The notes under the pieces are model-generated. The model saw nothing but the letters and a program-made list of their open reading frames with translations, ran no database searches and was not told the DNA's origin. Below are positions 1 to 29,145 of a stretch of 64,000 nt of DNA, piece by piece; the first letter of the stretch is position 1; every line of letters begins with the position of its first letter. A program made the position numbers and the translations under genes. The stretch comes from Flectonema sp. DT1601 (taxonomy: Eukaryota). Where the stretch lies: assembly GCA_964019425.1 (NCBI GenBank), contig OZ025780.1, positions 930,001 through 994,000 of the forward strand. The letters run 5' to 3'.

Positions 1-3000
1 AAAAAAAATAAAAAGATACCAACAGGTGGGGTGATGGGTTGCGCCACTGCAATCCAGTCACAAAAAGAAACAAAGGTAATCTCAAGGGTTCTCGACCCTT
101 GGCTCTCCCTGCGCAAGCATCGCATGGAGGGTGACGCTAAGCACCCGGGGGGTACGAAACAAACTTTCCCCCTGCTGTCCTGTTTGAAATAAAAAAAAAA
201 AACAAAGGGATAGAAGTAAACAGAATACGTTACACCTCAACAGGTGACGCTAAACACCCAGGGGATACAAACCAAACTTTCCCCCTGTTGCCCTGTTTGA
301 AATAAATTAAAAAAAGAACAAGAAAACAGAATACAATACTCAGCAATCAGACTCGTTCACTCGCTTCGCCAGAGCCGTTCGAGCCGATGCTCATGTAAAG
401 TTACCTGTTTTCTTTTAACAAATTAAATAAAATAAGATAAATAAAAATAAAGAAGCGCAACGGAGAGGAATACATAACACCTCGACTCTTGCGCTAGCAT
501 CGCAAGGGGGGTACCCGGGAGATACAAACCAAACTTTCTCTGGAATACAATACCTAACAATCAGTGCGTTCACTGGCCTTAGGGCTGTTCGGACTTATGC
601 TTTGGACTGTTCCCTTGCAGAAAAAAAAAGTAAAATAAACCAACTTTGGGACATTAGAAAAGCATAAAATAAAAGTTGCTACAACCAAAAGACAACTGCA
701 AAAAAAAAAGGTTTTTGTAGGGGAGCTACAATGTAGCAATAATGTCACACAGTCATGTGGCAAGCTGGATAAGAGATTTGGGAGAGGAATAGGGGCAGTG
801 AACTTTTGGTTCAGGCCCTTCCCATCGAACAGGACGAAGACTTCTAAAACCTGAGATGAACCAATTGAGTTGAAACAAACAAATAACAGAGACGCAACAC
901 ATACCGGAACATCATCGCAAGCAATGCTTCGGACCTCCGTCGACCTTCGTTCTTCCGGCGGCAAAGGGAAACAAGAAAGAACGGGCAATGAGACAAACCT
1001 GTTAGTTGGTGTTGTGTTGTTGTTAAAAACAAAAACATAAACGCCAGGAAGTTCGACAACGAAGACATCGACATCGATCGCTGCTCTGCAGATGTCCGGC
1101 GGGTGTTTGTCTACACTGTGTTTATTGTTTGTTTTTTTCCCAAGGTTCAACCTTGGGAAGAGAAGTAAAAAATTCCGTCAATGTTGGCCTTCCTGTTCGA
1201 AGGTGCGCACCAATGACGATAAATAGAGTGGGGGGGAGAAAACCTTTGATCCAACTGGATCCCTTCACGAGCCGACATTGCCATGTGAAGTTAAATATTC
1301 TGGCGATGCCAGCTCAGGCGACTTAGCCTGCTTTTTTCTTTAAATAAAAAAAATAAAAAGATACCAACAGGTGGGGTGATGGGTTGCGCCACTGCAATCC
1401 AGTCACAAAAAGAAACAAAGGTAATCTCAAGGGTTCTCGACCCTTGGCTCTCCCTGCGCAAGCATCGCATGGAGGGTGACGCTAAGCACCCGGGGGGTAC
1501 GAAACAAACTTTCCCCCTGCTGTCCTGTTTGAAATAAAAAAAAAAAACAAAGGGATAGAAGTAAACAGAATACGTTACACCTCAACAGGTGACGCTAAAC
1601 ACCCAGGGGATACAAACCAAACTTTCCCCCTGTTGCCCTGTTTGAAATAAATTAAAAAAAGAACAAGAAAACAGAATACAATACTCAGCAATCAGACTCG
1701 TTCACTCGCTTCGCCAGAGCCGTTCGAGCCGATGCTCATGTAAAGTTACCTGTTTTCTTTTAACAAATTAAATAAAATAAGATAAATAAAAATAAAGAAG
1801 CGCAACGGAGAGGAATACATAACACCTCGACTCTTGCGCTAGCATCGCAAGGGGGGTACCCGGGAGATACAAACCAAACTTTCTCTGGAATACAATACCT
1901 AACAATCAGTGCGTTCACTGGCCTTAGGGCTGTTCGGACTTATGCTTTGGACTGTTCCCTTGCAGAAAAAAAAAGTAAAATAAACCAACTTTGGGACATT
2001 AGAAAAGCATAAAATAAAAGTTGCTACAACCAAAAGACAACTGCAAAAAAAAAAGGTTTTTGTAGGGGAGCTACAATGTAGCAATAATGTCACACAGTCA
2101 TGTGGCAAGCTGGATAAGAGATTTGGGAGAGGAATAGGGGCAGTGAACTTTTGGTTCAGGCCCTTCCCATCGAACAGGACGAAGACTTCTAAAACCTGAG
2201 ATGAACCAATTGAGTTGAAACAAACAAATAACAGAGACGCAACACATACCGGAACATCATCGCAAGCAATGCTTCGGACCTCCGTCGACCTTCGTTCTTC
2301 CGGCGGCAAAGGGAAACAAGAAAGAACGGGCAATGAGACAAACCTGTTAGTTGGTGTTGTGTTGTTGTTAAAAACAAAAACATAAACGCCAGGAAGTTCG
2401 ACAACGAAGACATCGACATCGATCGCTGCTCTGCAGATGTCCGGCGGGTGTTTGTCTACACTGTGTTTATTGTTTGTTTTTTTCCCAAGGTTCAACCTTG
2501 GGAAGAGAAGTAAAAAATTCCGTCAATGTTGGCCTTCCTGTTCGAAGGTGCGCACCAATGACGATAAATAGAGTGGGGGGGAGAAAACCTTTGATCCAAC
2601 TGGATCCCTTCACGAGCCGACATTGCCATGTGAAGTTAAATATTCTGGCGATGCCAGCTCAGGCGACTTAGCCTGCTTTTTTCTTTAAATAAAAAAAATA
2701 AAAAGATACCAACAGGTGGGGTGATGGGTTGCGCCACTGCAATCCAGTCACAAAAAGAAACAAAGGTAATCTCAAGGGTTCTCGACCCTTGGCTCTCCCT
2801 GCGCAAGCATCGCATGGAGGGTGACGCTAAGCACCCGGGGGGTACGAAACAAACTTTCCCCCTGCTGTCCTGTTTGAAATAAAAAAAAAAAACAAAGGGA
2901 TAGAAGTAAACAGAATACGTTACACCTCAACAGGTGACGCTAAACACCCAGGGGATACAAACCAAACTTTCCCCCTGTTGCCCTGTTTGAAATAAATTAA

Positions 3001-3360
3001 AAAAAGAACAAGAAAACAGAATACAATACTCAGCAATCAGACTCGTTCACTCGCTTCGCCAGAGCCGTTCGAGCCGATGCTCATGTAAAGTTACCTGTTT
3101 TCTTTTAACAAATTAAATAAAATAAGATAAATAAAAATAAAGAAGCGCAACGGAGAGGAATACATAACACCTCGACTCTTGCGCTAGCATCGCAAGGGGG
3201 GTACCCGGGAGATACAAACCAAACTTTCTCTGGAATACAATACCTAACAATCAGTGCGTTCACTGGCCTTAGGGCTGTTCGGACTTATGCTTTGGACTGT
3301 TCCCTTGCAGAAAAAAAAAGTAAAATAAACCAACTTTGGGACATTAGAAAAGCATAAAAT
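1..3360 (-). repeat. Family B tandem repeat, 1345-bp unit, ~2.5 copies (continues off the left edge; interrupted at 3360 and resumes at 11181)
   Basis: Identical ORFs recur at 554/1899 and 1129/2474 (period 1345). The unit sequence ...AGCATAAAAT|AAAAGTTGCTAC is broken at 3360. Strand assigned from intron-like segments and hairpin orientation. Confidence 0.95.
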
Positions 3361-5010
3361 GCAAGTTTTATAAAAGATGGTAAAGAAATCTTCCCTGTGG
3401 AAGAAGTCAAAATCCACAAAGTAACAAAACTGAAAACGATCGAAAAGCTCACCATTGAAAGATCGTGGCTTGAGAAATGTTTTATCTGGCAAACTTGTTA
3501 CGCATCGGCTCTTTCTATTCTACTTATTGCCAATGGTTCTTCCTCCCCGGCCCCTTCTGTTTTGTTAGATGAGGATGAGCTCACTGGACTCTCCTTGTCA
3601 TTCTCTTCTATTTCTTCCATCTCTTTCCAGACTCCCCCACCTGAACTCATGTCAACGGGATCGCAAACACTTCCTGCTGATTTCGCTATAGTGATAAGAA
3701 CTCAATCTGACATGGGTTCTCAAACCCCCTTGTACAAAAAAAAAGAAGGAAAATTAAGGCTGAAACTTTCCTTGAAATGCCAGATTTTAGAAAACGAATT
3801 AGAGCAAATGAAAGAACGAATTTTTTATGTTCTATTTTTATTTTACTTTAATGCGATGTCAGCCTCCCTCGAGAAAGACAAGCAGTTACTAAATGGATTA
3901 CCTGTTGAGATCAAAGCTACCAACCAGGATCCATCCTCACTTCCTCCTGCGCCCCCTGTTTTAATTATTGAAAAAGATAGAAAAGAATATGAACTTCTGG
4001 AAGGAGTAATTCAACGGTTAACAGCAGAACGCGATGAATCGAAGACTTCTCTTTCTGCACTAGTTCGACAATATGACTTAGTGGAAGATTACAGGAAACG
4101 TGAGCTCGCAAATCTGACTCAGAGAGCAGACCTATCGGAAATGGCGCTCTTTAATTACCATCAAAGGTTTGTTCTTCTGTCGAACGAATTGGAGACCAAA
4201 TGTAATGAGGAAAGAGAAAGTAAAATAAGACTTTTCTATACTCAACAGGAGGTCGAGAGTTTGCGTGCCGCGCGTCCCCGTATGACCCACTTTAGTCAAC
4301 AAGTTTCCCCCCGAACCCCCGTTCTATATGAATCTGTTGCTATGATGAAGATAGCAAAGAACTACCTCTCGCTCTTTACAACTACGAGTAGTCTTTTTAC
4401 TCCTCTTATTAAACCCCTTATCCCTACCCTTAATTATATCACCCCTCTTTGTCCTCTAGCCTCAATTCCTCCGACAATGCCGCAGAGTGAAGCTCTCGAC
4501 CGCACGCCGACCAAGATTTTACGACAAGAGAGTCACGTTATCTCCGTTAAAGAGAATACACCTATTGCGAGACAATGGTCCGAGGGTAGGATTGACTTAC
4601 TCGAGAATTACTGTCGAGCAGTAGATGACTCTCTCGAAACAAACGAGAAAGCGGCAGAGCTCTCAGAACAACTTCTGGATGCCCAACTTCGCCTCTCGGA
4701 GCTGAATCACCAACGGTGTACAACTCACGCAGAGCAGCTTGAGCAATCCATGATGTTAACGGGACTGGCGAGCGATTTAAATGCTCAACTCGCCTTGGCA
4801 CGGTCTCAAATTGCGGCCCTGAAGTTCCAATTAGCTTCATGGGCAGAAGGTTTGAGTCCGCCAGACACAGAAGAACATGAGGAAAATGAAACTCCGCCGA
4901 GAAAGTCTGAGCGTTCAACTCTGAAAAAACGAACCCCTCCATCAAGATATCGTTACAATCGAAGGAGATGTTCTGCTGATGACGTTCACGGTGACTCCAC
5001 CCCCTTGTAA
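3361..5010 (+). CDS. Family A-encoded coiled-coil-rich protein of unknown function, 5'-truncated
   Basis: 537-aa ORF from GTG 3397; the frame is open back to the insertion junction at 3361. Heptad-like E/L/Q-rich segments and a basic, TP-rich C-terminus. A diverged homolog of the C-terminus lies at ~29350-29485 (-). Confidence 0.6.
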   Translation, partial: ASFIKDGKEIFPVEEVKIHKVTKLKTIEKLTIERSWLEKCFIWQTCYASALSILLIANGSSSPAPSVLLDEDELTGLSLSFSSISSISFQTPPPELMSTGSQTLPADFAIVIRTQSDMGSQTPLYKKKEGKLRLKLSLKCQILENELEQMKERIFYVLFLFYFNAMSASLEKDKQLLNGLPVEIKATNQDPSSLPPAPPVLIIEKDRKEYELLEGVIQRLTAERDESKTSLSALVRQYDLVEDYRKRELANLTQRADLSEMALFNYHQRFVLLSNELETKCNEERESKIRLFYTQQEVESLRAARPRMTHFSQQVSPRTPVLYESVAMMKIAKNYLSLFTTTSSLFTPLIKPLIPTLNYITPLCPLASIPPTMPQSEALDRTPTKILRQESHVISVKENTPIARQWSEGRIDLLENYCRAVDDSLETNEKAAELSEQLLDAQLRLSELNHQRCTTHAEQLEQSMMLTGLASDLNAQLALARSQIAALKFQLASWAEGLSPPDTEEHEENETPPRKSERSTLKKRTPPSRYRYNRRRCSADDVHGDSTPL

Positions 5011-5504
5011 TTCTCTTTTCCTTACTTTCACATCACTTTGTTTATTTAGTTTTTTAGCTTATTTATTATTTATTGTTCGTTTTTGTTTGTATTATTTTAT
5101 CGATATGTTTATGTCCGTCAGATCATAACGTTAATCAGGTTAATTGTTAATTGTTAATTATAAATGGTCTAAACCCCAATCCAAGTTCCCAAGGCTTGGC
5201 ATAGATTTGAGTGACGCCTTACTGGCCTCCTCATCCTCTATGAGTGGTGAGGGGGCCAGCAATGGTTTTTTTTTTTTTTTTTTTTTCTCTTATTTCTTTT
5301 TTTCTTTTTCTTTTACTCTAATATGAAATATTTTTGAACAAAATGTGATTATTAATTTAAAAAAAAAAAAAAAAATAATAATGTAAATGAATAATAAAAA
5401 AAAAAAAAAAAAAAACATGCCTTGGGAATACAATCAAAGCCCCAATTAATCGGTCCTTTCTTTTTCCTTCTTGTCAAGTGATCGCTCCACTCGTCGATCA
5501 CCAA

Positions 5505-6345
5505 AACCGATTGTATTTATATCTGTTCTTTTCTCAACGATCGGCTATACCGACCATTTTTTTTTATAAATAATTGTTTTCTTCTTCTCGACGATCAGAT
5601 CCAATTGATCGACCTTTTTTTTTTTTTTTTTTCCTTTATTCCTTCCATCCCTCCCGCTCCCCTAATTTTAAAAAAAACAAGATCAGCTCAGCTTGATCGT
5701 TAATCTTTTTTTCTTTTTTTAATTTAAACTGATTGTATTTATATCTGTTTATTTTTCTCGACGATCGGCTATACCGATCAACCTTTAAAATAATTTCTTC
5801 TTCTCGACGATCAGATCCAATTGATCAACCTTTTCTTTTTTTTTTTCCTCTATTCCTTCCATCCCTCCCGCTCCCCTATTTGTAATAAAAACAAGATCAG
5901 CTCAGCTTGATCGTTAATCTTTTTTTCTTTTTTTAATTTAAACTGATTGTATTTATATCTGTTTATTTTTCTCAACGATCGGCTATACCGATCAACCTTT
6001 AAAATAATTTCTTCTTCTCGACGATCAGATCCAATTGATCAACCTTTTCTTTTTTTTTCCTCTATTCCTTCCATCCCTCCCGCTCCCCTATTTGTAATAA
6101 AAACAAGATCAGCTCAGCTTGATCGTTAATCTTTTTTTCTTTTTTTAATTTAAACTGATTGTATTTATATCTGTTTATTTTTCTCAACGATCGGCTATAC
6201 CGATCAACCTTTAAAATAATTTCTTCTTCTCGACGATCAGATCCAATTGATCAACCTTTTCTTTTTTTTTCCTCTATTCCTTCCATCCCTCCCGCTCCCC
6301 TATTTGTAATAAAAACAAGATCAGCTCAGCTTGATCGTTAATTTT
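5505..6345 (+). repeat. ~212-bp tandem repeat (4 copies) inside family A
   Basis: Units start AAAC(T/C)GATTGTATTTATATC at ~5505, 5726, 5940, 6152; identical ORFs at 5947/6159. Only two copies in the element copy at ~24797-25220. Confidence 0.9.
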
Positions 6346-6670
6346 TTTTTCTTTCTTTTTTGTTGGTCCTAGTCAAGACCTTAAACTGACTAACCGGTCT
6401 TAATTTTAAATAAGTGTTAACCTAGTTTCTCTTTTCCTTTTCAATTTCCTTTTAATACTCTCTATCTGGTCTGTTATGTCATATTTCTCATTTAATTTTA
6501 TCATCCATTTTACTTTTCACTGTTTCCCATCTACATTTTATTTTCAAATAGTTACGGTCTGTTAAAAAAAAAAAAAAAAAGTTTAAATAAGTTAAATTGA
6601 ACATGTTAACTCAATTCCTCAATTCTTCCGTCATGGTCATGACATTCTTTTTCGCTTCTCTAATGCACAA

Positions 6671-6765
6671 GAGATACCATCACTCATGAGATACCAACGC
6701 ACATACGAGATACCAGCACTCCAGAGATACCGACACGCTAGAGATACCAAGTCACTTGAGATACC
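6671..6765 (+). repeat. Six GAGATACC direct repeats with 9-11-nt variable spacers (iteron-like)
   Basis: GAGATACC at 6671, 6688, 6707, 6724, 6741, 6758; also at 17445-17539 and, diverged, at 25507-25601. Confidence 0.9.
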
Positions 6766-7007
6766 TCCTTGTAAATTAATTCCCGGTATTTCAAATTTGA
6801 ATTGATAGTGTCAACTCTGCTTGCTGCTCTTGTTAATGTGTTGTCTCCTGAAAGTGATCTTAACTCCTGTAAAAAGAAAAAAAAAAAGAAATCAAAAAAG
6901 AAGAATTTTCAAACGAAGTTATAACAACCCCTACCACCCATTATGATCAATTCCGCTTGTTTTTTTTTTTTTTTTAAAACAAAAAAAAAAATAAAAAATT
7001 ATAAAAG

Positions 7008-8504
7008 ATTAAACAATGTTATCATTGTATTTTTATCGATCGACTATGTCGATTACTTTCTATTTTCCGTCCTGGTCAAGACGCTAAACTGATTGTTTTT
7101 TTTTTTTTTTTCAAAATTAATAAAAAAGAATATAAAAAAAAAAATAAAAAAAAGAATAAACAATGTTATCATTGTTTTTTTATCGTTCGACTTTGTCGAC
7201 TAATTTCTATTTTCCGTTTTTCTTCTTAAAAAATAAATAAAAAGAATTTAAAAAAAAAAAAAAAAAAAGAATAAACAATGTTATCATTGTTTTTTTATCG
7301 ATCGACTATGTCGATTACTTTCTATTTTCCGTCCTGGTCAAGACGCTAAACTGATTGGTTTTTTTTTTTTTTTCAAAATTAATAAAAAAGAATAAAAAAA
7401 AAAAATAAAAAAAAGAATAAACAATGTTATCATTGTTTTTTTATCGTTCGACTTTGTCGACTAATTTCTATTTTCCGTTTTTTTTTCTTAAAAAATAAAT
7501 AAAAAGAATTTAAAAAAAAAAAAAAAAAAAAAAGAATAAACAATGTTATCATTGTTTTTTTATCGATCGACTTTGTCGACTAATTTCTATTTTCCGTCCT
7601 GGTCAAGACGCTAAACTGATTGTTTTTTCTAAATAAATAAAAAGAATAAAAAAAAAAAAAAAAAAAAAAAGATTAAACAATGTTATCATTGTTTTTTTTA
7701 TCGATCGACTATGTCGATTACTTTCTATTTTCCGTCCTGGTCAGGACGCTAAACTGATTGTTTTTTCTTTAAAAAATAAATAAAAAGAATAAAAAAAAAA
7801 AAAAAAAAAAAAAAAAAAGAATAAACAATGTTATCATTGTTTTGTTATCGATCGACTTTGTCGACTAATTTCTATTTTCCGTCCTGGTCAAGACGCTAAA
7901 CTGATGTTTTTTCTTTAAAAAATAAATAAAAAGAATTAAAAAAAAAAAAAAAAAAAAAAAAAAGAATAAACAATGTTATCATTGTTTTTTTATCGATCGA
8001 CTATGTCGATCACTTTCTATTTCCCGTCCTGGTCAGGACGCTAAACTGATTGTTTTTTCTTTAAAAATAAATAAAAAGAATAAAAAAAAAAAAAAAAGGA
8101 ATAAACAATGTTATCATTGTTTTTATTTTATCGATCGACTATGTCGATTACTTTCTATTTTCCGTCCTGGTCAAGACGCTAAACTGATTGTTTTTTCTTT
8201 AAAAAATAAAAAGAAGGATTTAAAAAAAAAAAAAAAAAAAAAAAGAATAAACAATGTTATCATTGTTTTTTTATCGATCGACTATGTCGATCACTTTCTA
8301 TTTTTCGTCCTGGTCAAGACGCTAAACTGATTGTTTTTTCTTTAAAAATAATAAAAAGGATTTAAAAAAAAAAAAAAAAAAAAAAAAAGAATAAACAATG
8401 TTATCATTGTTTTATTTTATCGATCGACTATGTCGATCACTTTCTATTTTTCGTCCTGGTCAAGACGCTAAACTGATTGTTTTTTCTTTAAAAATAATAA
8501 AAAG

Positions 8505-8552
<48 letters not shown>

Positions 8553-8921
8553 ATAAACAATGTTATCATTGTTTTTTTATCGATCGACTATGTCGATCAC
8601 TTTCTATTTTCCGTCCTGGTCAAGACGCAAAACTGATTGTTTTTTTTCAAAATTAATAAAAAAGAATACAAAAAAAAATAAAAAAAAAAGAATAAACAAT
8701 GTTATCATTGTTTTTTTTTATCGTTCGACGTTGTTGACTAATTTCTAGTTTCCGTTTTTTTTTTTTCTTTTTAAAAAATAAATAAAAAGATTTAAAAAAA
8801 AAAAAAAAGAATAAACAATGTTATCATTGTTTTTTTTATCGATCGACTATGTCGATTACTTTCTATTTTCCGTCCTGGTCAAGACGCTAAACTGATTGTT
8901 TTTTCTTTAAAAAAAAAAAAG

Positions 8922-8956
<35 letters not shown>

Positions 8957-9734
8957 TAAACAATGTTATCATTGTTTTTTTTTATCGATCGACTATGTCG
9001 ATCACTTTCTATTTTCCGTCCTGGTCAAGACGCTAAACTGATTGTTTTTTTTTCAAAATTAATAAAAAAGAATATAAAAAAAAAAAATAAAAAAAAAAAA
9101 GAATAAACAATGTTATCATTGTTTTTTTTTTATCGTTCGACTTTGTCGACTAATTTCTATTTTCCGTTTTTTTTCTTTTTAAAATAAAAAGAATTTAAAA
9201 AAAAAAAAAAAAAAAGAGTAAACAATGTTATCATTGTTTTTTTTTATCGATCGACTATGTCGATTACTTTCTATTTTCCGTCCTAGTCAAGACGCTAAAC
9301 TGATTGTTTTTTTTTTCAAAATTAATAAAAAAGAATAAAAAAAAACAAAAAAAAAAAGAATAAACAATGTTATCATTGTTTTTTTTTTATCGTTCGACTT
9401 TGTCGACTAATTTTTATTTTCCGTTTTTTTTTCTTTAAAAATAAATAAAAAGAATTTAAAAAAAAAAAAAAAAAAAGAATAAACAATGTTATCATTGTTT
9501 TTTTATCGATCGACTATGTCGATCACTTTCTATTTTCCGTCCTGGTCAAGGCGCTAAACTGATTGTTTTTTCTTTAAAATAATAAAAAGGATTAAAAAAA
9601 AAAAAAAAAAAAAAAAAGAATAAACAATGTTATCATTGTTTTTTATCGATCGACTATGTCGATCACTTTCTATTTTCCGTCCTGGTCAAGACGCTAAACT
9701 GATTGTTTTTTCTTTAAAAAATAATTAAAAGGTT

Positions 9735-9765
<31 letters not shown>

Positions 9766-10770
9766 AGAATAAACAATGTTATCATTGTTTTTTTATCGAT
9801 CGACTATGTCGATCACTTTCAATTTTCCGTCCTGGTCAGGACGCTAAACTGATTGTTTTTTCTTTAAAAATAAATAAAAAGAATAAAAAAAAAAAAAAAA
9901 AAAAAGGAATAAACAATGTTATCATTGTTTTTTTTTTATCGATCGACTATGTCGATTACTTTCTATTTTCCGCCCTGGTCAAGACGCTAAACTGATTGTT
10001 TTTCTTTAAAATAATTAAAAGGATTTAAAAAAAAAAAAAAAAAAAAAAAAGAATAAACAATGTTATCATTGTTTTTTTTCTATCGATCGACTATGTCGAT
10101 CACTTTCAATTTTCCGTCCTGGTCAGGACGCTAAACTGATTGTTTTTTCTTTAAAAATAAATAAAAAGAATAAAAAAAAAAAAAAAAAAAAAAGGAATAA
10201 ACAATGTTATCATTGTTTTTTTTCTATCGATCGACTATGTCGATCACTTTCAATTTTCCGTCCTGGTCAGGACGCTAAACTGATTGTTTTTTCTTTAAAA
10301 ATAAATAAAAAGAATAAAAAAAAAAAAAAAAAAAAAAGGAATAAACAATGTTATCATTGTTTTTTTTCTATCGATCGACTATGTCGATCACTTTCAATTT
10401 TCCGTCCTGGTCAGGACGCTAAACTGATTGTTTTTTCTTTAAAAATAAATAAAAAGAATAAAAAAAAAAAAAAAAAAAAAAGGAATAAACAATGTTATCA
10501 TTGTTTTTTTTCTATCGATCGACTATGTCGATCACTTTCAATTTTCCGTCCTGGTCAGGACGCTAAACTGATTGTTTTTTCTTTAAAAATAAATAAAAAG
10601 AATAAAAAAAAAAAAAAAAAAAAAAGGAATAAACAATGTTATCATTGTTTTTTTTCTATCGATCGACTATGTCGATTAATTTCTATTTTCCGTCCTGATC
10701 GAGACGCTAAACTGATTGTTTCTTTTTTTAAATAATAAATAAAAAAAAAAAGAAAAAAAAAAAAAAAAAA
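7008..10770 (+). repeat. Satellite array of family A, ~120-bp long and ~90-bp short units separated by T-tract/A-tract linkers
   Basis: Core AATAAACAATGTTATCATTG(T)nATCGATCGACTATGTCGATTACTTTCTATTTTCCGTCCTGGTCAAGACGCTAAACTGATTG repeated roughly 30 times. Confidence 0.97.
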
Positions 10771-10955
10771 AGAGCATCTCCCTGCTATCCTCATATCCCC
10801 ACAATAATATTATACCTTTTCATTTTCTCTTTCCTTTTCTGGTCTTTTTTTTTTCTTTTTTTCCTTTTTCATACAACGTTTTTTATTTATATTTTATTTT
10901 TTTTTTTTTTTTTTCATGTTTGATTATTTCCTCTTCATATTTTTTTTCTATTCTT

Positions 10956-10986
<31 letters not shown>

Positions 10987-11180
10987 CTCTACCTCTCTCT
11001 TAATTCTGTTCGTTTCTTTGAAACGAAAATTCATTTGAATATTATTCCTTGGTCAGCAACCATCATTGTCGCCCTTTGGGCCTGTTAAAAAAAAAAAAAA
11101 AAATAAAAAGAAAGTTTACATCGGGAATAGGGCAGGAGCCAAAAGCTCCCAGTCCGTTACTTCCCACCTTTTCGAAATTC

Positions 11181-12270
11181 AAAGTTGCTACAACCAAAAG
11201 ACAACTGCAAAAAAAAAAGGTTTTTGTAGGGGAGCTACAATGTAGCAATAATGTCACACAGTCATGTGGCAAGCTGGATAAGAGATTTGGGAGAGGAATA
11301 GGGGCAGTGAACTTTTGGTTCAGGCCCTTCCCATCGAACAGGACGAAGACTTCTAAAACCTGAGATGAACCAATTGAGTTGAAACAAACAAATAACAGAG
11401 ACGCAACACATACCGGAACATCATCGCAAGCAATGCTTCGGACCTCCGTCGACCTTCGTTCTTCCGGCGGCAAAGGGAAACAAGAAAGAACGGGCAATGA
11501 GACAAACCTGTTAGTTGGTGTTGTGTTGTTGTTAAAAACAAAAACATAAACGCCAGGAAGTTCGACAACGAAGACATCGACATCGATCGCTGCTCTGCAG
11601 ATGTCCGGCGGGTGTTTGTCTACACTGTGTTTATTGTTTGTTTTTTTCCCAAGGTTCAACCTTGGGAAGAGAAGTAAAAAATTCCGTCAATGTTGGCCTT
11701 CCTGTTCGAAGGTGCGCACCAATGACGATAAATAGAGTGGGGGGGAGAAAACCTTTGATCCAACTGGATCCCTTCACGAGCCGACATTGCCATGTGAAGT
11801 TAAATATTCTGGCGATGCCAGCTCAGGCGACTTAGCCTGCTTTTTTCTTTAAATAAAAACAATAAAAAGATACCAACAGGTGGGGTGATGGGTTGCGCCA
11901 CTGCAATCCAGTCACAAAAAGAAACAAAGGTAATCTCAAGGGTTCTCGACCCTTGGCTCTCCCTGCGCAAGCATCGCATGGAGGGTGACGCTAAGCACCC
12001 GGGGGGTACGAAACAAACTTTCCCCCTGCTGTCCTGTTTGAAATAAAAAAAAAAAACAAAGGGATAGAAGTAAACAGAATACGTTACACCTCAACAGGTG
12101 ACGCTAAACACCCAGGGGATACAAACCAAACTTTCCCCCTGTTGCCCTGTTTGAAATAAATTAAAAAAAGAACAAGAAAACAGAATACAATACTCAGCAA
12201 TCAGACTCGTTCACTCGCTTCGCCAGAGCCGTTCGAGCCGATGCTCATGTAAAGTTACCTGTTTTCTTTT
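11181..12270 (-). repeat. Family B unit, remainder of the copy interrupted at 3360
   Basis: Matches the unit sequence from 672 onward; ORF 11063-11659 shares its N-terminal part with 554-1150. Confidence 0.9.
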
Positions 12271-12290
12271 AAGGAGCTGAAAAGCAAAAA

Positions 12291-14890
12291 AAGTTCACTG
12301 CCCCTATTCCTCTCCCAAATTTCTTATTCAGCTTGCCACATGACTGTGTGACATTATTGCTACATTGTAGCTCCCCTACAAAAACCTTATTTTTTGCAGT
12401 TGTCTTTTGGTTGTAGCAACTTTTATTTTATGCTTTTCTAATGTCCCAAAGTTGGTTTATTTTACTTTTTTTTTCTGCAAGGGAACAGTCCAAAGCATAA
12501 GTCCGAACAGCCCTAAGGCCAGTGAACGCACTGATTGTTAGGTATTGTATTCCAGGGAAAGTTTGGTTTGTATACTTTATTTTTATTTTATTTTATTTAA
12601 TTTGTTAAAAGAAAACAGGTAACTTTACATGAGCATCGGCTCGAACGGCTCTGGCGAAGCGAGTGAACGAGTCTGATTGCTGAGTATTGTATTCTGTTTT
12701 CTTGTTCTTTTTTTAATTTATTTCAAACAGGGCAACAGGGGGAAAGTTTGGTTTGTATCCCCTGGGTGTTTAGCGTCACCTGTTGAGGTGTAATGTATTC
12801 TGTTTACTTCTATCCCTTTGTTTTTTTTTTTTTTTTTTTATTTCAAACAGGACAGCAGGGGGAAAGTTTGTTTCGTACCCCCCGGGTGCTTAGCGTCACC
12901 CTCCATGCGATGCTTGCGCAGGGAGAGCCAAGGGTCGAGAACCCTGGAGATTACCTTTGTTTCTTTTTGTGACTGGATTGCAGTGGCGCAACCCATCACC
13001 CCACCTGTTGGTATCTTTTTATTTTTTTTATTTAAAGAAAAAAGCAGGCTAAGTCGCCTGAGCTGGCATCGCCAGAATATTTAACTTCACATGGCAATGT
13101 CAGCTCGTGAAGGGATCCAGTTGGATCAAAGGTTTTCTCCCCCCCCACTCTATTTATCGTCATTGGTGCGCACCTTCGAACAGGAAGGCCAACATTGACG
13201 GAATTTTTTACTTCTCTTCCCAGGGTTGAACCTTGGGAAAAAAACAAACAATAAACACAGTGTAGACAAACACCCGCCGGACATCTGCAGAGCAGCGATC
13301 GATGTCGATGTCTTCGTTGTCGAACTTCCTGGCGTTTATGTTTTTGTTTTTAACAACAACACAACACCAACTAACAGGTTTGTCTCATTGCCCGTTCTTT
13401 CTTGTTTCCCTTTGCCGCCGGAAGAACGAAGGTCGACGGAGGTCCGAAGCATTGCTTGCGATGATGTTCCGGTATGTGTTGCGTCTCTGTTATTTGTTTG
13501 TTTCAACTCAATTGGTTCATCTCAGGTTTTAGAAGTCTTCGTCCTGTTCGTTGGGAAGGGCCTGAATCAAAAGTTCACTGCCCCTATTCCTCTCCCAAAT
13601 TTCTTATTCAGCTTGCCACATGACTGTGTGACATTATTGCTACATTGTAGCTCCCCTACAAAAACCTTATTTTTTGCAGTTGTCTTTTGGTTGTAGCAAC
13701 TTTTATTTTATGCTTTTCTAATGTCCCAAAGTTGGTTTATTTTACTTTTTTTTTCTGCAAGGGAACAGTCCAAAGCATAAGTCCGAACAGCCCTAAGGCC
13801 AGTGAACGCACTGATTGTTAGGTATTGTATTCCAGGGAAAGTTTGGTTTGTATACTTTATTTTTATTTTATTTTATTTAATTTGTTAAAAGAAAACAGGT
13901 AACTTTACATGAGCATCGGCTCGAACGGCTCTGGCGAAGCGAGTGAACGAGTCTGATTGCTGAGTATTGTATTCTGTTTTCTTGTTCTTTTTTTAATTTA
14001 TTTCAAACAGGGCAACAGGGGGAAAGTTTGGTTTGTATCCCCTGGGTGTTTAGCGTCACCTGTTGAGGTGTAATGTATTCTGTTTACTTCTATCCCTTTG
14101 TTTTTTTTTTTTTTTTTTTATTTCAAACAGGACAGCAGGGGGAAAGTTTGTTTCGTACCCCCCGGGTGCTTAGCGTCACCCTCCATGCGATGCTTGCGCA
14201 GGGAGAGCCAAGGGTCGAGAACCCTGGAGATTACCTTTGTTTCTTTTTGTGACTGGATTGCAGTGGCGCAACCCATCACCCCACCTGTTGGTATCTTTTT
14301 ATTTTTTTTATTTAAAGAAAAAAGCAGGCTAAGTCGCCTGAGCTGGCATCGCCAGAATATTTAACTTCACATGGCAATGTCAGCTCGTGAAGGGATCCAG
14401 TTGGATCAAAGGTTTTCTCCCCCCCCACTCTATTTATCGTCATTGGTGCGCACCTTCGAACAGGAAGGCCAACACTGACGGAATTTTTTACTTCTCTTCC
14501 CAGGGTTGAACCTTGGGAAAAAAACAAACAATAAACACAGTGTAGACAAACACCCGCCGGACATCTGCAGAGCAGCGATCGATGTCGATGTCTTCGTTGT
14601 CGAACTTCCTGGCGTTTATGTTTTTGTTTTTAACAACAACACAACACCAACTAACAGGTTTGTCTCATTGCCCGTTCTTTCTTGTTTCCCTTTGCCGCCG
14701 GAAGAACGAAGGTCGACGGAGGTCCGAAGCATTGCTTGCGATGATGTTCCGGTATGTGTTGCGTCTCTGTTATTTGTTTGTTTCAACTCAATTGGTTCAT
14801 CTCAGGTTTTAGAAGTCTTCGTCCTGTTCGTTGGGAAGGGCCTGAATCAAAAGTTCACTGCCCCTATTCCTCTCCCAAATTTCTTATTCA
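12291..14890 (+). repeat. Family B, inverted orientation, 1280-bp variant, two units plus short terminal redundancy, ending 38 nt after the CAAAA loop
   Basis: ORFs at 13226/14506 and 12818/14098 (period 1280); reverse complement of the 1-3360 unit with an internal deletion. Confidence 0.9.
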
Positions 14891-14994
14891 AAAAAGGAAA
14901 CAATCAGTTTAGCGTCTCGATCAGGACGGAAAATAGAAATTAATCGACATAGTCGATCGATAGAAAAAAAAAAACAGTGATAACATTGTTTATT

Positions 14995-15030
<36 letters not shown>

Positions 15031-16317
15031 TTTTTAATTATTTTAAAGAAAAAACAATCAGTTTAGCGTCTTGATCAGGACGGAAAATAGTAAGTAATCG
15101 ACATAGTCGATCGATAAAAAAAAACAATGATAACATTGTTTATTCCTTTTTTTTTTTTTTATTCTTTTTATTTATTTTTAAAGAAAAAACAATCAGTTTA
15201 GCGTCCTGACCAGGACGGAAAATAGAAAGTAATCGACATAGTCGATCGATAAAAAAAACAATGATAACATTGTTTATTCTTTTTTTTTTTTTAATTTAAT
15301 TCTTTTTATTAATTTTTAAAAAGAAAAAAAAATGGAAATAGAAATTAGTCAACAAAGTCGAACGATAAAAAAAACAATGATAACATTGTTTATTCTTTTT
15401 TTTGTATTTTTTTATATTCTTTTTTATTAATTTTGAAAAAAAAACAATCAGTTTAGCGTCTTGACCAGGACGGAAAATAGAAAGTAATCGACATAGTCGA
15501 TCGATAAAAAAAACAATGATAACATTGTTTATTCTTTTTTTTTTTTTTTTTTTTTTAATTCTTTTTATTTATTTTTTAAAAAGAAAAAAAATGGAAAATA
15601 GAAATTAGTCAACAAAGTCGAACGATAAAAAAAAACAATGATAACACTGTTTATTCTTTTTTTTTTTATTTTTTTTATATTCTTTTTTATTAATTTTGAA
15701 AAAAAAAACAATCAGTTTAGCGTCTTGACCAGGACGGAAAATAGAAAGTAATCGACATAGTCGATCGATAAAAAAACAATGATAACATTGTTTATTCTTT
15801 TTTTTTTTTTATTTTAAATTCTTTTTATTTATTTTTTAAAGAAAAAAAAACGGAAAATAGAAATTAGTCGACAAAGTCGAACGATAAAAAAAAACAATGA
15901 TAACATTGTTTATTCTTTTTTTTGTATTTTTTTATATTCTTTTTTATTAATTTTGAAAAAAAAAACAATCAGTTTAGCGTCTTGACCAGGACGGAAAATA
16001 GAAAGTAATCGACATAATCGATCGATAAAAAAAACAATGATAACATTGTTTATTCTTTTTTTTTTTTTTTTTTTTTTTTAAATTCTTTTTATTAATTTTT
16101 TAAAGAAAAAAAACGGAAAATAGAAATTAGTCAACAAAGTCGAACGATAAAAAAAAACAATGATAACATTGTTTATTCTTTTTTTTTATTTTTTTTTTTT
16201 AATATTTTTTTTTTATTTTGAAAAAAAAAACAATCAGTTTAGCGTCTTGACCAGGACGGAAAATAGAAAGTAATCGACATAGTCGATCGATAAAAAAAAC
16301 AATGATAACATTGTTTA
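14891..16317 (-). repeat. Family A satellite array, minus orientation (left part; continues at 23444-24359)
   Basis: Reverse-complement units; begins with the terminal-unit variant CGTCTCGATCAGGACG. Confidence 0.95.
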
Positions 16318-17042
16318 CTGTAAAGGGAAATATTCTTGTGGGGAAAAACCCGCGAGTTTTTCTCATTTTTCCTAAATCCGCGAGAATATTTCCCCGCGAG
16401 AATATTTCCCTGCTAACAAACATTTTGCCCAGCCATTTTTTTTTTCCCCTTGTGAAAGAAAAGGTGTGAAAATACAATAAACTAGGAAAATTTATTTAGT
16501 GCAGTTATATTTTATTGGTGTGCTGTAAGTAGAAAAATATAATTAGAAGTGAACATATAAATTGAATCATTCAAATTGCTGTGAGGGAACTTATACAAAA
16601 GAGAGAAGAAAACAAAATTAAAAGTAAATAGAAACAAGCTAAGGGAATTTATAAAATAGGGAGAAAAATATACTGTAAAGGGAAATATTCTTGTGGGGAA
16701 AAACCCGCGAGTTTTTCTCATTTTTCCTAAATCCGCGAGAATATTTCCCCGCGAGAATATTTCCCTGCTAACAAACATTTTGCCCAGCCATTTTTTTTTT
16801 CCCCTTGTGAAAGAAAAGGTGTGAAAATACAATAAACTAGGAAAATTTATTTAGTGCAGTTATATTTTATTGGTGTGCTGTAAGTAGAAAAATATAATTA
16901 GAAGTGAACATATAAATTGAATCATTCAAATTGCTGTGAGGGAACTTATACAAAAGAGAGAAGAAAACAAAATTAAAAGTAAATAGAAACAAGCTAAGGG
17001 AATTTATAAAATAGGGAGAAAAATATAGGGGAAAACATAGAT

Positions 17043-19478
17043 TTAATCAATGTTGATAACTTCAGGTCCTACTTCAATTTCAGGTACTTCTTCAAAATCC
17101 TGAACACTGTTAGGATTAGGAACTGAAGAAATTGAAGAATCTGGGTCAGAATAGTAGCCTGAAAGATCATCAACATCAATAGTGGTTTGGGAGCCATCAA
17201 CTGCATAAAAGCTAGTTGTGTCTGAAATTGACTGGGATTCACCTAGATGATAAGGGGTAAGTGCCCTGTTAAAGCCAGCAATAATAGTCTCCTTTGGTGT
17301 TTCATAGTAAGACTCAATAACCCAAATAGTTACGGTCTGTTAAAAAAAAAAAAAGTTTAAATAAGTTAAATTGAACATGTTAACTCAATTCCTCAATTCT
17401 TCCGTCATGGTCATGACATTCTTTTTCGTTTTTCTAATGCACAAGAGATACCATCACTCATGAGATACCAACGCACATACGAGATACCAGCACTCCAGAG
17501 ATACCGACACGCTAGAGATACCAAGTCACTTGAGATACCTCCTTGTAAATTAATTCCCGGTATTTCAAATCTGAATTGATAGTGTCAACTCTGCTTGCTG
17601 CTCTTGTTCATGTGTTGTCTCCTGAAAGTGATCTTAACTCCTATAAAAAGAAAAAAAAAAAAAAAGAAATCAAAAAAGAAGAATTTTCAAACGAAGTTAT
17701 AACAACCCCTACCACCCATTATGATCAATTCCGCTTGTTTTTTTTTTTTTTTTAAAAACAAATAAAACAAATAAAAAAAAAAAAATTATAAAAGATCAAA
17801 CAATGTTATCATTGTTTTTTTTTATCGATCGACTCTGTCGACTAATTTCTATTTTCCGTTTTTTTTCTTTAAAAAATAAATAAAAAGAATTTAAAAAAAA
17901 AAAAAAAAAAAGATTAAACAATGTTATCATTGTTTTTTTATCGATCGACTATGTCGATTACTTTCTATTTTCCGTCCTGGTCAAGACGCTAAACTGATTG
18001 TTTTTTTCAAAATTAATAAAAAAGAATATAAAAAAAAAAATAAAAAAAAAAAAAAAGAATAAACAATGTTATCATTATTTTTTCTATCGTTCGACTTTGT
18101 CGACTAATTTCTATTTTCCGTTTTTTTTCTTTAAAAATAAATAAAAAGAATTTAAAAAACAAAAAAAGAATAAACAATGTTATCATTTTTTTTTTTTTAT
18201 CGATCGACTATGTCGATCACTTTCTATTTTCCGTCCTGGTCAAGACGCTAAACTGATTGTTTTTTTTTTTCAAAATTAAAAAAGAATATAAAAAAAAAAA
18301 AATAAAAAAAAAAAAAGAATAAACAATGTTATCATTGTTTTTTTTATCGATCGACTCTGTCGACTAATTTCTATTTTCTTTTTTTTCTTTAAAAAATAAA
18401 TAAAAAGAATTTAAAAAAAAAAAAAAAAAAGAATAAACAATGTTATCATTGTTTTTTTATCGATCGACTATGTCGATTACTTTCTATTTTCCGTCCTGGT
18501 CAAGACGCTAAACTGATTGTTTTTTTCAAAATTAATAAAAAAGAATATAAAAAAAAAATAAAAAAAAAAGATTAAACAATGTTATCATTGTTTTTTTTAT
18601 CGTTCGACCTTGTCGACTAATTTCTATTTTCCGTTTTTTTCTTTAAAAATAAATAAAAAAGAATTTAAAAAAAAAAAAAAAAAAGAATAAACAATGTTAT
18701 CATTGTTTTTTTATCGATCGACTATGTCGATTACTTTCTATTTTCCGTCCTGGTCAAGACGCTAAACTGATTGTTTTTTTCAAAATTAATAAAAAAGAAT
18801 ATAATAAAAAAAATAAAAAAAAAATAAAAAAAAAATAAAAAAAAAATAAAAAAAAAAAGATTAAACAATGTTATCATTGTTTTTTTTTATCGTTCGACCT
18901 TGTCGACTAATTTCTATTTTTTTTTTCTTTAAAAATAAATAAGAAAGAATTTAAAAAAAAAAAAAAAAAAGAATAAACAATGTTATCATTGTTTTTTTTA
19001 TCGATCGACTCTGTCGACTAATTTCTATTTTCTTTTTTTTCTTTAAAAAATAAATAAAAAGAATTTAAAAAAAAAAAAAAAAAAGAATAAACAATGTTAT
19101 CATTGTTTTTTTATCGATCGACTATGTCGATTACTTTCTATTTTCCGTCCTGGTCAAGACGCTAAACTGATTGTTTTTTTCAAAATTAATAAAAAAGAAT
19201 ATAAAAAAAAAAATAAAAAAAAAATAAGAAAAAAATAAAAAAAAAAAGATTAAACAATGTTATCATTGTTTTTTTTTATCGTTCGACCTTGTCGACTAAT
19301 TTCTATTTTTTTTTCTTTAAAAATAGATAAAAAAGAATAAAAAAAAAAAAAAAAAAAAAGAATAAACAATGTTATCATTGTTTTTTTATCGATCGACTAT
19401 GTCGATTACTTTCTATTTTCCGTCCTGGTCAAGACGCTAAATTGATTGTTTCTTCTTTAAAAATAAATTAAAAAAAAA

Positions 19479-19515
<37 letters not shown>

Positions 19516-19883
19516 AATAAACAATGTTATCATTGTTTTTATCGATCGGCTTTGTCGACTAATTTCTATTTTCCGTCCTGGTCAAGACGCTAAACTGATT
19601 GTTTTTCTAAAAATAAATAAAAAGAATAAAAAAAAAAAAAAAAAAAAAAAGAATAAACAATGTTATCATTGTTTTTTTATCGATCGACTCTGTCGACTAA
19701 TTTCTATTTTCCGTTTTCTTTTCTTTAAAAAATAAATAAAAAGAATAAAAAAAAAAAAAAAAAAAAAAAGAATAAACAATGTTATCATTGTTTCTTATCG
19801 ATCGACTTTGTCGACTAATTTCTATTTTCCGTCCTGGTCAAGACGCTAAACTGATTGTTTTTTCTTTAAAAATAAATAAAAGA

Positions 19884-19916
<33 letters not shown>

Positions 19917-20259
19917 AATAAACAATGTTATCATTGTTTTTTTATCGTTCGACTCTGTCGACTAATTTCTATTTTTTTTTTCTTTAAAAAATAAATAAAA
20001 AGAATAAAAAAAAAAAAAAAAAAAAAAAGAATAAACAATGTTATCATTGTTTTTTTATCGATCGACTCTGTCGACTAATTTCTATTTTCCGTTTTCTTTT
20101 CTTTAAAAAATAAATAAAAAGAATAAAAAAAAAAAAAAAAAAAAAAGAATAAACAATGTTATCATTGTTTCTTATCGATCGACTTTGTCGACTAATTTCT
20201 ATTTTCCGTCCTGGTCAAGACGCTAAACTGATTGTTTTTTCTTTAAAAATAAATAAAAG

Positions 20260-20294
<35 letters not shown>

Positions 20295-23055
20295 AATAAA
20301 CAATGTTATCATTGTTTTTTTTTATCGATCGACTTTGTCGACTAATTTCTATTTTCCGTCCTGGTCAAGACGCTAAACTGATTATTTTTTTCTTTAAAAA
20401 ATAAATAAAAAGAATAAAAAAAAAAAAAAAAAAAAAATGAATAAACAATGTTATCATTGGTTCTTATCGATCGACTTTGTCGACTAATTTCTATTTTCCG
20501 TCCTGGTCAAGACGCTAAACTGATTGTTTATTCTTTTAAAAAATAAATAAAAGATATAAAAAAAAAAAAAAAAAAAAAGAAATAAACAATGTTATCATTG
20601 GTTTTTTTTATCGATCGACTTTGTCGATTACTGTCTACTTTCCGTCCTGGTCAAGACGCTAAACTGATTTTTTTTTTTTTTTTTAAAAATTAATAAAAAG
20701 AATATAAAAAAAAAAAAAAAAAAAAAATGAATAAACAATGTTATCATTGTTTCTTATCGATCGACTTTGTCGACTAATTTCTATTTTCCGTCCTGGTCAG
20801 GACGCTAAACTGATTGTTTTTTCTTTAAAAAATAAATAAAAAGATAAATAAAAAAAAAAAAAAAAAAAAAGGAATAAACAATGTTATCATTGTTTTTTTT
20901 ATCGATCGACTATGTCGATTACTTTCTATTTTCCGTCCTGGTCAGGACGCTAAACTGATTGTTTTTTCTTTAAGAAATAAATAAAAAGTTAAAAAAAAAA
21001 AAAAAAAAAAAAAAAGGAATAAACAATGTTATCATTGTTTTTTTTTTATCGATCGACTATGTCGATTACTTTCTATTTTCTGTCCTGGTCAAGACGCTAA
21101 ACGGAAGTTTTTTCTTTAAAATAATTAAAAGGATTTAAAAAAAAAAAAAAAAAAAAAAAAAGAATAAACAATGTTATCATTGTTTTTTTTTCTATCGATC
21201 GACTATGTCGATTGATTTCTATTTTCCGTCCTGATCGAGACACTAAACTGATTGTTTCCTTTTTTTTTAAATAATAAATAAAAAAAAAAAAAATAAAAAA
21301 AAAAAAAAAAAAGAGCATCTCCCTGCTATCCCTCATATCCCCACAATAATATTATACCTTTTCATTTTCTCTTTCCTTTTCTGGTCTTTATTTTTTTTTT
21401 TCCTTTTTCATACAACGTTTTTTTATTTATATATTTTTTTTTTTTTTTTTTCATGTTTGATTATTTCCTCTTCATATTTTTTTTCTTTTTTCTTTTCTTT
21501 CTTTTTTTTCTTTTTTTTCTCTGCCTCTCTCTTAATTCTGTTCGTTTCTTTGAAACGAAAATTCATTTGAATATTATTCCTTGGTCAGCAACCATCATTG
21601 TCGCCCTTTGGGCCTGTTAAAAAAAAAAAAAATAAAAAGAAAGTTTACATCGGGAATAGGGCAGGAGCCAAAAGCTCCCAGTCCGTTACTTCCCACTTTA
21701 TCGAAATTGCTTGCCTGTCTCTTAGGGAAGATGTTCGCAAATCAGGTAAAACTGGGATTTTAGGGATTTGAGAATCATCAAAGTTCTGTCCAGTTTCCTG
21801 TGCAGCCCTTTGAAGTTCCTCAATCTCCTTTTGCCTTTTTTTTTGTTTTGTTAAAATAGAATTTATCTCTTCAGAATACCAATTACAAAACTTGTTTCTA
21901 AATCTTTGCTTCAAACCAGCAAAAACTGAAATGTCCAGTGGTTGTAGCTTACCTGTCCAACCAGCTGGTATAAATATTGGCAGGTAGCCAAAGGATAAAA
22001 AGAAATCAAACATGGTACAATCATCCTGGCCACTAAAATGATCAAGAAGGATAATAAATATTTGGTTTTCATCAAGATTGTTACTCTCAACAATCTTAAG
22101 TCTGATTGGGTGAAGGTGAAATTCAATGTACTGCCTGGTTAGTTGTTTATTGGCAAAATGGTTTGTTGAACCAGAGGATAATATAAAACATTTGCCCTGA
22201 AGATTAGGAGATAGCTTTGGTTGACTGCGAGTAGTTTTGCCAGGTACAATCAAACAGAAGGGGTGGATATCACCTGCCTGTGAAACACAAGCAATACCTG
22301 TGATCTGCCTTTTATCATTGGCACAAGTAATTGGGACTTGAGTGGCCCCCCTTTGTTCCAAGGTCTTCTTTGGTGCTGGTGTTAACTGTAGCCCTGTGTG
22401 ATCAATATTTAATACACAGCAGGGTGGAACTTCACAGTCATGTATTGCCTGTTTTAGTTCCATTGTAAACTCCCTTTGTGCTTCAAGGAGATTCTTCTCT
22501 TGAAGGGGTTTACTTGCAGTTGCTGAGCGCCAAACAAATCCTCTTGCACCCATAAACTTCTTTGCCCATTCAGTTGTGAATGTAATTTCCCTTTGTGGGT
22601 CATTTCTGTAGTATATGGCCTTGGCTGTGGCCTTAACTACCAGACTGTTGATTGAAGCACCAAACCTTCTTAAGTTCCTTAGGTGTGCTAAGACCTCTTC
22701 TTCATTTGTTTCTGAAAGGTGGGAAGGTCTTCCAGCTTTTCGCTTGACTGCCTGCATACTGTTCCTTTCTCTATAAAGCTTAACTGCATGTCTTGCAGTT
22801 GTCTCTGCAAGTCTCTTTCCCTTCACCTTGGTTCCACACCCTGATCCCTGCTGCTAAGTTGGTGGCCACTGACATCCTCCTACCTATCTCTATCAGTTCT
22901 TCTTTTTCCCACTTCACCTGATTTCTCTTTCCCTTTTCCTCTCTTACTTGCCTAGCAATGCTTCTTACTATTGGTCCAGGTAGGTTGAATCTTGGTGGTG
23001 GTGTATTTCCATCCTTCTTTAGGAAGGAAGTAATAAGTGGCTGTTCCTTTGGCAT
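17043..23055 (-). pseudogene. pogo-family transposase (CENP-B-like HTH + DDE_1) in pieces: 23055-~22826, frameshift, 22826-21704, then 17327-17043
   Basis: Motifs VLNIDHTG, KRQITGI, IILLDHFSGQ, IPAGWTGKLQPLDISVFAGLK. Rejoining across the insert reads ..SSLRDRQAIWVIESYYETPKETIIAGFNRA..EVINID*. Confidence 0.9.
17328..21703 (+). mobile_element. Family A element, 5'-truncated copy inserted in the pogo transposase
   Basis: Starts at the equivalent of 6550, has its own satellite array (~17795-21310) and the same 3' end; AAAT on both flanks. Confidence 0.9.
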
Positions 23056-24639: not shown

Positions 24640-24674
<35 letters not shown>

Positions 24675-26895: not shown

Positions 26896-26926
<31 letters not shown>

Positions 26927-28561: not shown

Positions 28562-28596
<35 letters not shown>

Positions 28597-28921: not shown

Positions 28922-28952
<31 letters not shown>

Positions 28953-29141: not shown

Positions 29142-29145
29142 AAAT

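Follow-up and report, generated by a model that had tools for sequence, protein, structure and literature searches.

Is the satellite array that recurs along a short piece of a eukaryotic chromosome a host repeat, or is it the cargo of a mobile element, and by what mechanism would such an element move it? The question arises from a stretch of 64,000 nucleotides of Flectonema sp. DT1601 (assembly GCA_964019425.1, contig OZ025780.1, positions 930,001 to 994,000 of the forward strand), hereafter the window, in which copies of a repeat family, family A, carry the satellite. A sequence-only reading had proposed that the satellite is disseminated by transposition and then expands or contracts. We now consider it very probable that family A is a long interspersed nuclear element (LINE) of the class that encodes a restriction-like endonuclease (RLE), that the satellite belongs to its long 3' untranslated region (UTR), and that target-primed reverse transcription (TPRT) from a fixed 3' end is the likely means by which the element disperses the array.

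The identity of the element comes from its open reading frame (ORF). In copy 1, a frame of 550 codons (3358-5010) contains 549 residues (3361-5010) that are identical, 549/549, to the last 549 residues of the database protein P0176 and that agree with P0179 and P0172 at 545/549 and 548/549 positions. Pfam gave a single weak match on this frame (E 0.057), and the first homolog search returned three proteins, one of which reaches upstream into a zf-RVT domain (the cluster members listed for the family proteins were 15 of 47, 14 of 14 and 15 of 235). In the longer copies the reverse transcriptase (RT), which is absent from the truncated copy of the window, lies in a single long ORF (RVT_1, E 6e-26 in P0177 and 2e-11 in P0179), and is followed by a CCHC zinc knuckle of the form CX2CX8HX4C (position 401 of P0179; zf-RVT, E 4e-7) and by the core motifs of an RLE, assigned by motif match (RHD 430, RPDI 513, ELT 530 and KEKKY 546 of P0179). 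The order ahead of the C-terminal extension is FADD, CX2CX8HX4C, RHD, RPDI, ELT, KEKKY. The published RLE-LINE knuckle, CX2-3CX7-8HX4C after the RT, and the RLE core, PD...(D/E) with a distant KX2KY (PMC5678591), are thus found in the longer family proteins, whose layout is that of the class (PMC5678591, PMC4640811). Two N-terminal Cys/His finger patterns, with no Pfam match at 0.01, are present in P0181, which overlaps P0049 at 99%. The overlap of P0181, P0049, P0177 and P0179 gives an ORF of about 1,740 residues from a putative start; the 3' UTR of copy 1 measures 6,170 bp, and the whole element would thereby be at least 11.4 kb long. Among solved structures the R2 proteins match best (PDB, E 2.7e-23; L1 ORF2p, E 1.1e-5), and the ESM Atlas places the RT-RLE part with unnamed eukaryotic clusters, 23% of whose members carry zf-RVT. 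Contigs of two public runs, X1 and X2, one of which may be the window's own source, extend beyond 3360 into sequence that encodes the residues ahead of the window frame (2,549 further bases in X1); a further run, X5, gave hardly any cover, and DNA pattern scans found no match in JGI metagenomes or viral contigs. Since the ORF matches the C-terminal part of a protein that has RT, CCHC knuckle and RLE upstream in frame, copy 1 is read as a 5'-truncated RLE-class non-LTR (long terminal repeat) retrotransposon.

Array-masked self-comparison combined with junction extraction confirmed that the plus-strand copies have one module order in common: ORF end, 212-bp repeats, leader, satellite and a tail of about 410 bp, the self-matches (E down to 0) being well past chance. 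Copies 1 to 4 also bear out the earlier claim of a single 3' end (11180, 21708, ~27113 and 29147) with differing 5' starts, and, as had been stated, no terminal inverted repeats, LTRs or poly(A) tail were seen on the copies in the window. The tails are 94-95% identical among copies, the divergence in tails and leaders being 4-6%. Copy 1 (3361-11180, plus strand), of subfamily 1, lies within a unit of a tandem repeat, B. It consists of the 3' part of the ORF (3361-5010), which encodes the 549-residue extension past the endonuclease, predicted to form long helices (coiled coil), the upstream domains of the longer copies being cut off; four copies of the 212-bp repeat, each with a palindromic hairpin (5504-6359); a leader (6360-6956) with short 17/36-bp repeats at 6666-6765 and about 95 bp (6465-6559) 80% similar to another repeat, element C; the AT-rich array (6957-10771), whose 27 units measure ~145 bp (L) or ~115 bp (S) and each contain two or three short palindromes; and the conserved tail (10772-11180), which closes with a stem-loop and the terminal AAATTC and is likely the region where the RT starts. 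Copy 2 (17328-21708, plus), truncated in the leader, has 26 units and a full tail, and is inserted in the transposase ORF of a pogo-type transposon. Copy 4 (27114-29147, plus) begins within the array and has 12 units and a full tail.

That the satellite travels inside a mobile element is supported by copies 1 and 2, which are single insertions, each including its whole array and each with an empty site. The empty B site occurs four times in the window and in contigs of X1 and X2 that run through it; when copy 2 is taken out, the pogo frame is continuous, there being no intact pogo copy for comparison. The two clean insertions of the sequence-only reading therefore stand; its AAAT at each junction has another explanation. 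Copies 1 and 4 finish with AAATTC and copy 2 with AAATT; a contig of X1 has AAATT plus C and then a new flank, and one of X2 breaks off at this position. As AAATT(C) recurs at the 3' end of copies 1, 2 and 4 and in the X1 contig with another flank, the AAAT on the right is part of the element. At the left of copy 1, AAAT is B sequence, and what lies upstream in the element itself agrees with it at no more than one base; this copy shows no target duplication and has lost 1-2 target bases. Copy 2 has a microhomology of 5 nucleotides at both junctions, indistinguishable from a 4-bp duplication. An AAAT target duplication as the rule was rejected.

In the case of R2, TPRT with 5' truncation and absent target-site duplications is described (PMC13580325, PMC4640811), as are a pairing 3' tail and the truncation of 5' ends (PMC13580325). 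In family A, precise 3' ends and variable 5' truncation are found in four window copies, in one public-run contig and at the junctions of database proteins. Because these ends and the junctions of copies 1 and 2, with their lost bases and microhomology, fit TPRT with a short 3' pairing, we infer this mechanism from the anatomy of the copies. A transcript of at least about 11.4 kb would be copied from its 3' end, the tail and the array first and the ORF last, and most insertions would consist of array plus tail, since the ORF is copied last. A few terminal bases would likely pair with an AT-rich nick, which would leave microhomology without a regular target duplication. Older copies of A and nearby repeats would often receive the new copies, and the arrays, being rich in TA and TTAA, would then gather pogo and piggyBac insertions. 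With each new insertion the satellite is thus likely carried to another site, frequently within an older copy of A. The targets of A show no fixed sequence, but are strongly concentrated in A, C and B repeats.

The database proteins offer a second view of this nesting. Among the matches listed, 63 family proteins contain 35 terminal segments of at least 12 residues that are foreign to the ORF: 12 correspond to the A tail (one weakly), 3 to the satellite, 6 to element C, 1 to B, 1 to a frameshift and 1 to a weak unique match. In five proteins (P0024, P0044, P0047, P0173 and P0178) the 3' end of the A tail lies antisense, each time at a different position of the ORF. These junctions were read back from translations, not from DNA, and from a partial member listing; for these reasons, and as gene callers favour such fusions, the nested share is not a rate.

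Several observations weigh against the reading of A as a LINE that carries the satellite. We saw no stretch of DNA that holds RT, array and tail together, the chain being made of overlaps (ORF to tail in the window, RT to extension in proteins and contigs), and among the public-run contigs none crosses the array or the left junction of copy 1. Eleven of the 35 foreign segments match nothing in the window. Two of the seven window arrays have neither flank motif, and in 4 or 5 joins (P0006, P0032, P0043, P0049) the ORF passes straight to the tail without an array; nested insertions of the tail only would look alike, and some copies of A may indeed be devoid of the array.

These last two points also speak for a reading that we regard as rather unlikely, in which the satellite would be an independent host repeat, most of it outside the LINE. 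A source copy of the LINE lying upstream of it would have acquired the leader, the array and the tail through transduction by 3' read-through. Such an origin would alter where the association comes from and how much it weighs, but would leave the mechanism of spread as proposed. It would agree with the fact that part of the leader is common to element C and with a 3' UTR of 6.2 kb, which far exceeds the 336-409 bp of FoTeRs (PMC12857005). However, both subfamilies carry the array though their leaders are only 67-78% identical, five of the seven arrays close with the same distinct last unit, one of these having lost its tail, and no array of the window exceeds 27 units.

One fixed end with a nearby stem-loop, one variable end and the lack of target duplication would also be expected of a non-autonomous Helitron or Helentron that had captured a LINE fragment and moved the array by rolling circle, and oyster Helentrons do carry satellite-like central repeats (PMC7492417). 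This is nevertheless very improbable, as the RT-RLE frame is intact, 98-100% identical across many copies and in the same orientation as the fixed 3' end, the truncation points lie along the ORF, and none of the 14 window ORFs scanned with Pfam matched RepHel. Helitrons have 5' TC and 3' CTRR ends or sub-terminal inverted repeats, from which the 3' end of A differs. Finally, segmental duplication or mis-assembly without any transposition, which could be suspected in a repeat-rich, heavily rearranged region where one block looks inverted, copy 4 and a minus-strand array are closely related in their units and the junctions are unbridged by public-run contigs, is scarcely credible in view of the different flanks and precise empty sites of copies 1 and 2, the divergence among copies and the many other flanks met by the same 3' end.

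If the array is moved as part of the LINE, how do its units evolve? The arrays contain 27, 26, 6 and 12 units in copies 1 to 4, 3 units in the remnant once counted as copy 5, and 17 and 5 units in two minus-strand arrays. The differences in length that had been attributed to expansion or contraction are real, mostly as truncation: the short arrays stop at a 5' truncation, a MITE-like end (miniature inverted-repeat transposable element), pogo or piggyBac, and the two arrays with both flanks, in copies 1 and 2, are similar in size (27 and 26 units). The leader motif is found in 3/7 arrays, the start of the tail in 4/7 and both in 2/7. L and S units tend to alternate in the 5' half of the arrays, L units predominate in the 3' half, and the order differs between copies 1 and 2. 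The mean identity of L units is 0.901 within arrays versus 0.897 between them, and units of copy 4 and of the minus array are closely related (98.7% best-hit identity). Nevertheless, for 34 of the 87 complete units the closest match lies exclusively within the home array, versus 18.6 expected, and 0 of 2,000 permutations reach 34. This excess, together with the identical units 23-26 of copy 1, points to a local turnover of units on a conserved frame. Slippage or unequal exchange is the likely process, acting either in the donor copy or once the element had inserted. The spread of the cargo is thus upheld by copies 1 and 2, and its later expansion and contraction only in part.

The repeats of the UTR also have structure in common. 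Predicted folding is better than that of shuffled sequences for the L unit (z -5.0) and the 212-bp unit (z -4.1), the units being too alike for covariation; for the S unit and the tail it is not clearly better (z -0.9, -1.8, -0.8). Both the 212-bp repeat (5537-6210) and the satellite contain an 11-bp motif and a similar palindromic hairpin (the second of the satellite), in which one change is present on both arms; the two kinds of unit may have a common origin. A search of the UTR in Rfam for ribozymes and known RNAs gave nine matches at E up to 1, all far under the gathering score, and they were rejected.

The second unusual part of A is its C-terminal extension, which exists in two versions. 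The two subfamilies are about 99% identical in RT-RLE and 92-100% identical over the first 150 residues of the extension, and then fall to 25-72% per block of 50 residues. Across 350 residues the versions are about 50% identical, and both are open; in neutral simulations to equal divergence 0 of 2,000 remained so, for which reason the extension is likely under selection. It is likely functional, a role as a targeting or oligomerising coiled coil being a guess. An AlphaFold model made without an alignment (predicted local distance difference test score, pLDDT, 44.5) contains low-confidence long helices and is too poor for a fold search; the ESM Atlas returned generic coiled-coil proteins with a low recognition score, which were not used as family evidence. 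We found no clear transmembrane segment (best 19-residue hydropathy 1.4), no match of the extension among 118 RLE relatives and no longer homologs, the last being weak evidence.

The idea that a C-terminal extension is unique to A was rejected. Of the 118 distant relatives, at 24-35% identity, 105 reach the end of the RLE; past it the median tail is 19 residues, with 35 tails longer than 100 and 27 longer than 200. A USP/UCH deubiquitinase domain is present in 20 of the 120 relatives listed (including P0061, P0074, P0083, P0088 and P0090), after the knuckle in the eight scanned, and a Cys-box is followed by a His-box in 16 of these 20. A DarT-like DNA ADP-ribosyltransferase domain is found in 4 of the 120 (P0077, P0094, P0104 and P0134; E about 1e-21), after the knuckle in the four scanned; one DarT-like relative also has a chromodomain. 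A midpoint-rooted tree was built from 109 of 119 sequences, 10 having been excluded for their coverage, and all relatives in it are unnamed. In this tree A groups with P0050 and P0052 (support 0.985), both without extension, the UCH forms fall in at least two places and the DarT-like forms group together. As the UCH forms are so placed and the nearest relatives have no extension, the C-terminal slot of RLE LINEs appears to have been filled several times. No loci of P0050 were found, and a literature search judged by titles found nothing relevant on deubiquitinase, DarT-like or chromodomain modules in RLE LINEs.

Where does A stand among known elements? By target, neither R2 (28S ribosomal DNA) nor NeSL, Utopia or CRE (spliced-leader, U2 or tRNA genes) was retained: the targets are the B repeat, the pogo ORF and A itself, Rfam recognised 0 families at gathering score over the whole window, and one spliced-leader motif had 0 matches, an unrecognised RNA gene in B being possible. 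The RLE motifs of A presumably resemble those of HERO, and on these motifs we call A R2/HERO-like, its clade among RLE-class LINEs being left unplaced. HERO elements have mostly non-specific targets (PMC4640811), and PMC9004415 and PMC7650587 give context on the clades. Like the CRE, R2, R4, NeSL and HERO elements (PMC4640811), A combines a single ORF, N-terminal zinc fingers, RT, CCHC and RLE with precise 3' ends, variable 5' ends and little or no target-site duplication; unlike them, it has a 550-residue extension after the RLE, a 6.2-kb 3' UTR with three tandem arrays, and no rRNA, U2 or spliced-leader target that we could find. The fungal FoTeR and MoTeR elements are RLE LINEs with variable internal tandem repeats, more truncated than full copies and TPRT inferred from asymmetric junctions (PMC12857005), but the repeats of these elements add up to 0.4-1.4 kb, are found mainly on the 5' side of the ORF and accompany a telomere target, whereas A has a 3.8-kb array in its 3' UTR and the window has no tandem run of four common telomere motifs. 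Satellite-like arrays dispersed between conserved flanks also occur in the Cg_HINE Helentrons of the Pacific oyster (PMC7492417) and in the 3' UTR of Ogre LTR elements (PMC9659126), which move by rolling circle and LTR integrase, respectively, whereas A is an autonomous RT/RLE LINE; HeT-A has 3' UTR repeats as well (PMC9659126). The ZeppL elements of Chlamydomonas centromeres form, like A, local nested LINE clusters mixed with other transposons, but they are L1-type, and satellite is minor in their clusters (PMC9940879); for A, one cluster per chromosome and a link to centromeres would be conjecture. By titles and the beginnings of abstracts, mostly outside subscription papers and Repbase, we found no multi-kb satellite in a LINE 3' UTR. 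SVA and LAVA are reportedly mobile elements with tandem arrays too. What is new is therefore the multi-kb satellite in the 3' UTR of an RLE LINE, transposon-borne arrays themselves being known from Helentrons, Ogre and FoTeR.

The position of the satellite has consequences. Being in the 3' UTR it would be copied first, and even short, dead insertions would spread the array. The route from transposon to satellite becomes testable in one genome by counting arrays by flank, dating them and following unit turnover. If the proposed mechanism is true, about 6 kb of AT-rich, hairpin-rich repeat can be copied by an R2-like RT on its way to the ORF, which bears on R2-based gene insertion tools, and the contents of the C-terminal slot suggest accessory functions in RLE LINEs. 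Could A be a self-targeting LINE? The coiled-coil extension would tether the insertion complex to chromatin over the element's own palindromic 3' UTR arrays, every round of retrotransposition would bring more element and more satellite to these loci, and the resulting satellite-rich islands would act as centromeres or as seeds of heterochromatin, within a group of RLE LINEs whose exchangeable C-terminal module (deubiquitinase, DarT-like transferase plus chromodomain, or coiled coil) would steer or protect insertion. We hold this as a doubtful but possible extension of the model; the value of the finding would rise if arrays and extension did direct self-insertion at centromere-like loci.

The remaining A-derived DNA shows how far the nesting has gone: it occupies 21.1 kb (57%) of the window's first 37.4 kb, interspersed with B, pogo, piggyBac, a doubled MITE and element C. 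Copy 3 (24360-27113, plus) has a subfamily 2 UTR with six units, a leader 67-78% identical to that of copy 1, and a MITE-like end in place of the tail start. A subfamily 2 ORF end with a partial tandem duplicate lies at 29148-29492 (minus), of which 29492-29352 has 100% protein identity to the end of P0008. When the block 24360-29146, which comprises copies 3 and 4, is turned round, this ORF end reads into the start of copy 3 and both breakpoints rejoin sensibly; the block therefore appears to have been inverted in place, as a real event or as an assembly effect. Of the five plus-strand copies first counted, the fifth was not retained as such: its proposed start (29492-30061) is a piggyBac end, 98% identical to 35848-35286, downstream of which only three units and a tail start remain (30062-30558, plus), the tail being interrupted by two other insertions, with more tail pieces at 32724-32810 and 34370-34504. 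The first tally had furthermore missed two minus-strand arrays. The first has a distal part of 11 units at 14879-16316, with the diagnostic last unit, without a tail and joined to an inverted B copy, and a proximal part of 6 units at 23446-24359, the two parts being separated by the pogo element inserted at TA; the second has a distal part of 3 units at 34842-35281, between a pogo end and piggyBac, and a proximal part of 2 units at 37083-37364, split off by piggyBac at TTAA.

Among the neighbouring repeats, B is a 1,345-bp tandem repeat (1-3360 and 11181-14878) with units 99.7-99.9% identical, also present in public runs and without an Rfam match; two inverted copies of about 1,280 bp lie at 12289-14890. 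The pogo-type DNA transposon (16317-23445; DDE_1, E 6e-7) is inserted at TA in the first minus-strand array, has its ORF split by copy 2 and its left end duplicated (355 bp twice), and further pogo pieces lie at 34505-34841. Two degenerate piggyBac elements (35282-37082 and 29492-30061), with short terminal repeats and TTAA ends, are both in A satellite arrays, apparently independently. Element C (30560-32736), two 816-bp direct repeats 1,361 bp apart, lies in an A tail without clear duplication; it has about 95 bp (80%) in common with the A leader and adjoins the A ORF at six database junctions, and could be a non-autonomous partner of A. A tandem pair of a 783-bp MITE (32803-34376), with perfect 33-bp terminal inverted repeats and TA ends, also lies in an A tail, and a related MITE end (26685-26835) stands in for part of copy 3.

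Past 37.4 kb the window contains ordinary intron-containing genes. Three open frames lie side by side at 38041-39600, the first of them matching AAA weakly (E 9e-4), and the host genes seen at 40320-62516 are all on the plus strand: a P4-type ATPase with GT-AG introns, a coiled-coil protein (46053-47168), a PSP1-domain protein (53297-53968) and a metallophosphoesterase (61467-62516). Inverted repeats of 164 bp (97%) surround a short open frame at 51096-52243, possibly a DNA transposon, and a direct duplication of about 460 bp (80%) lies at 49213-50234.

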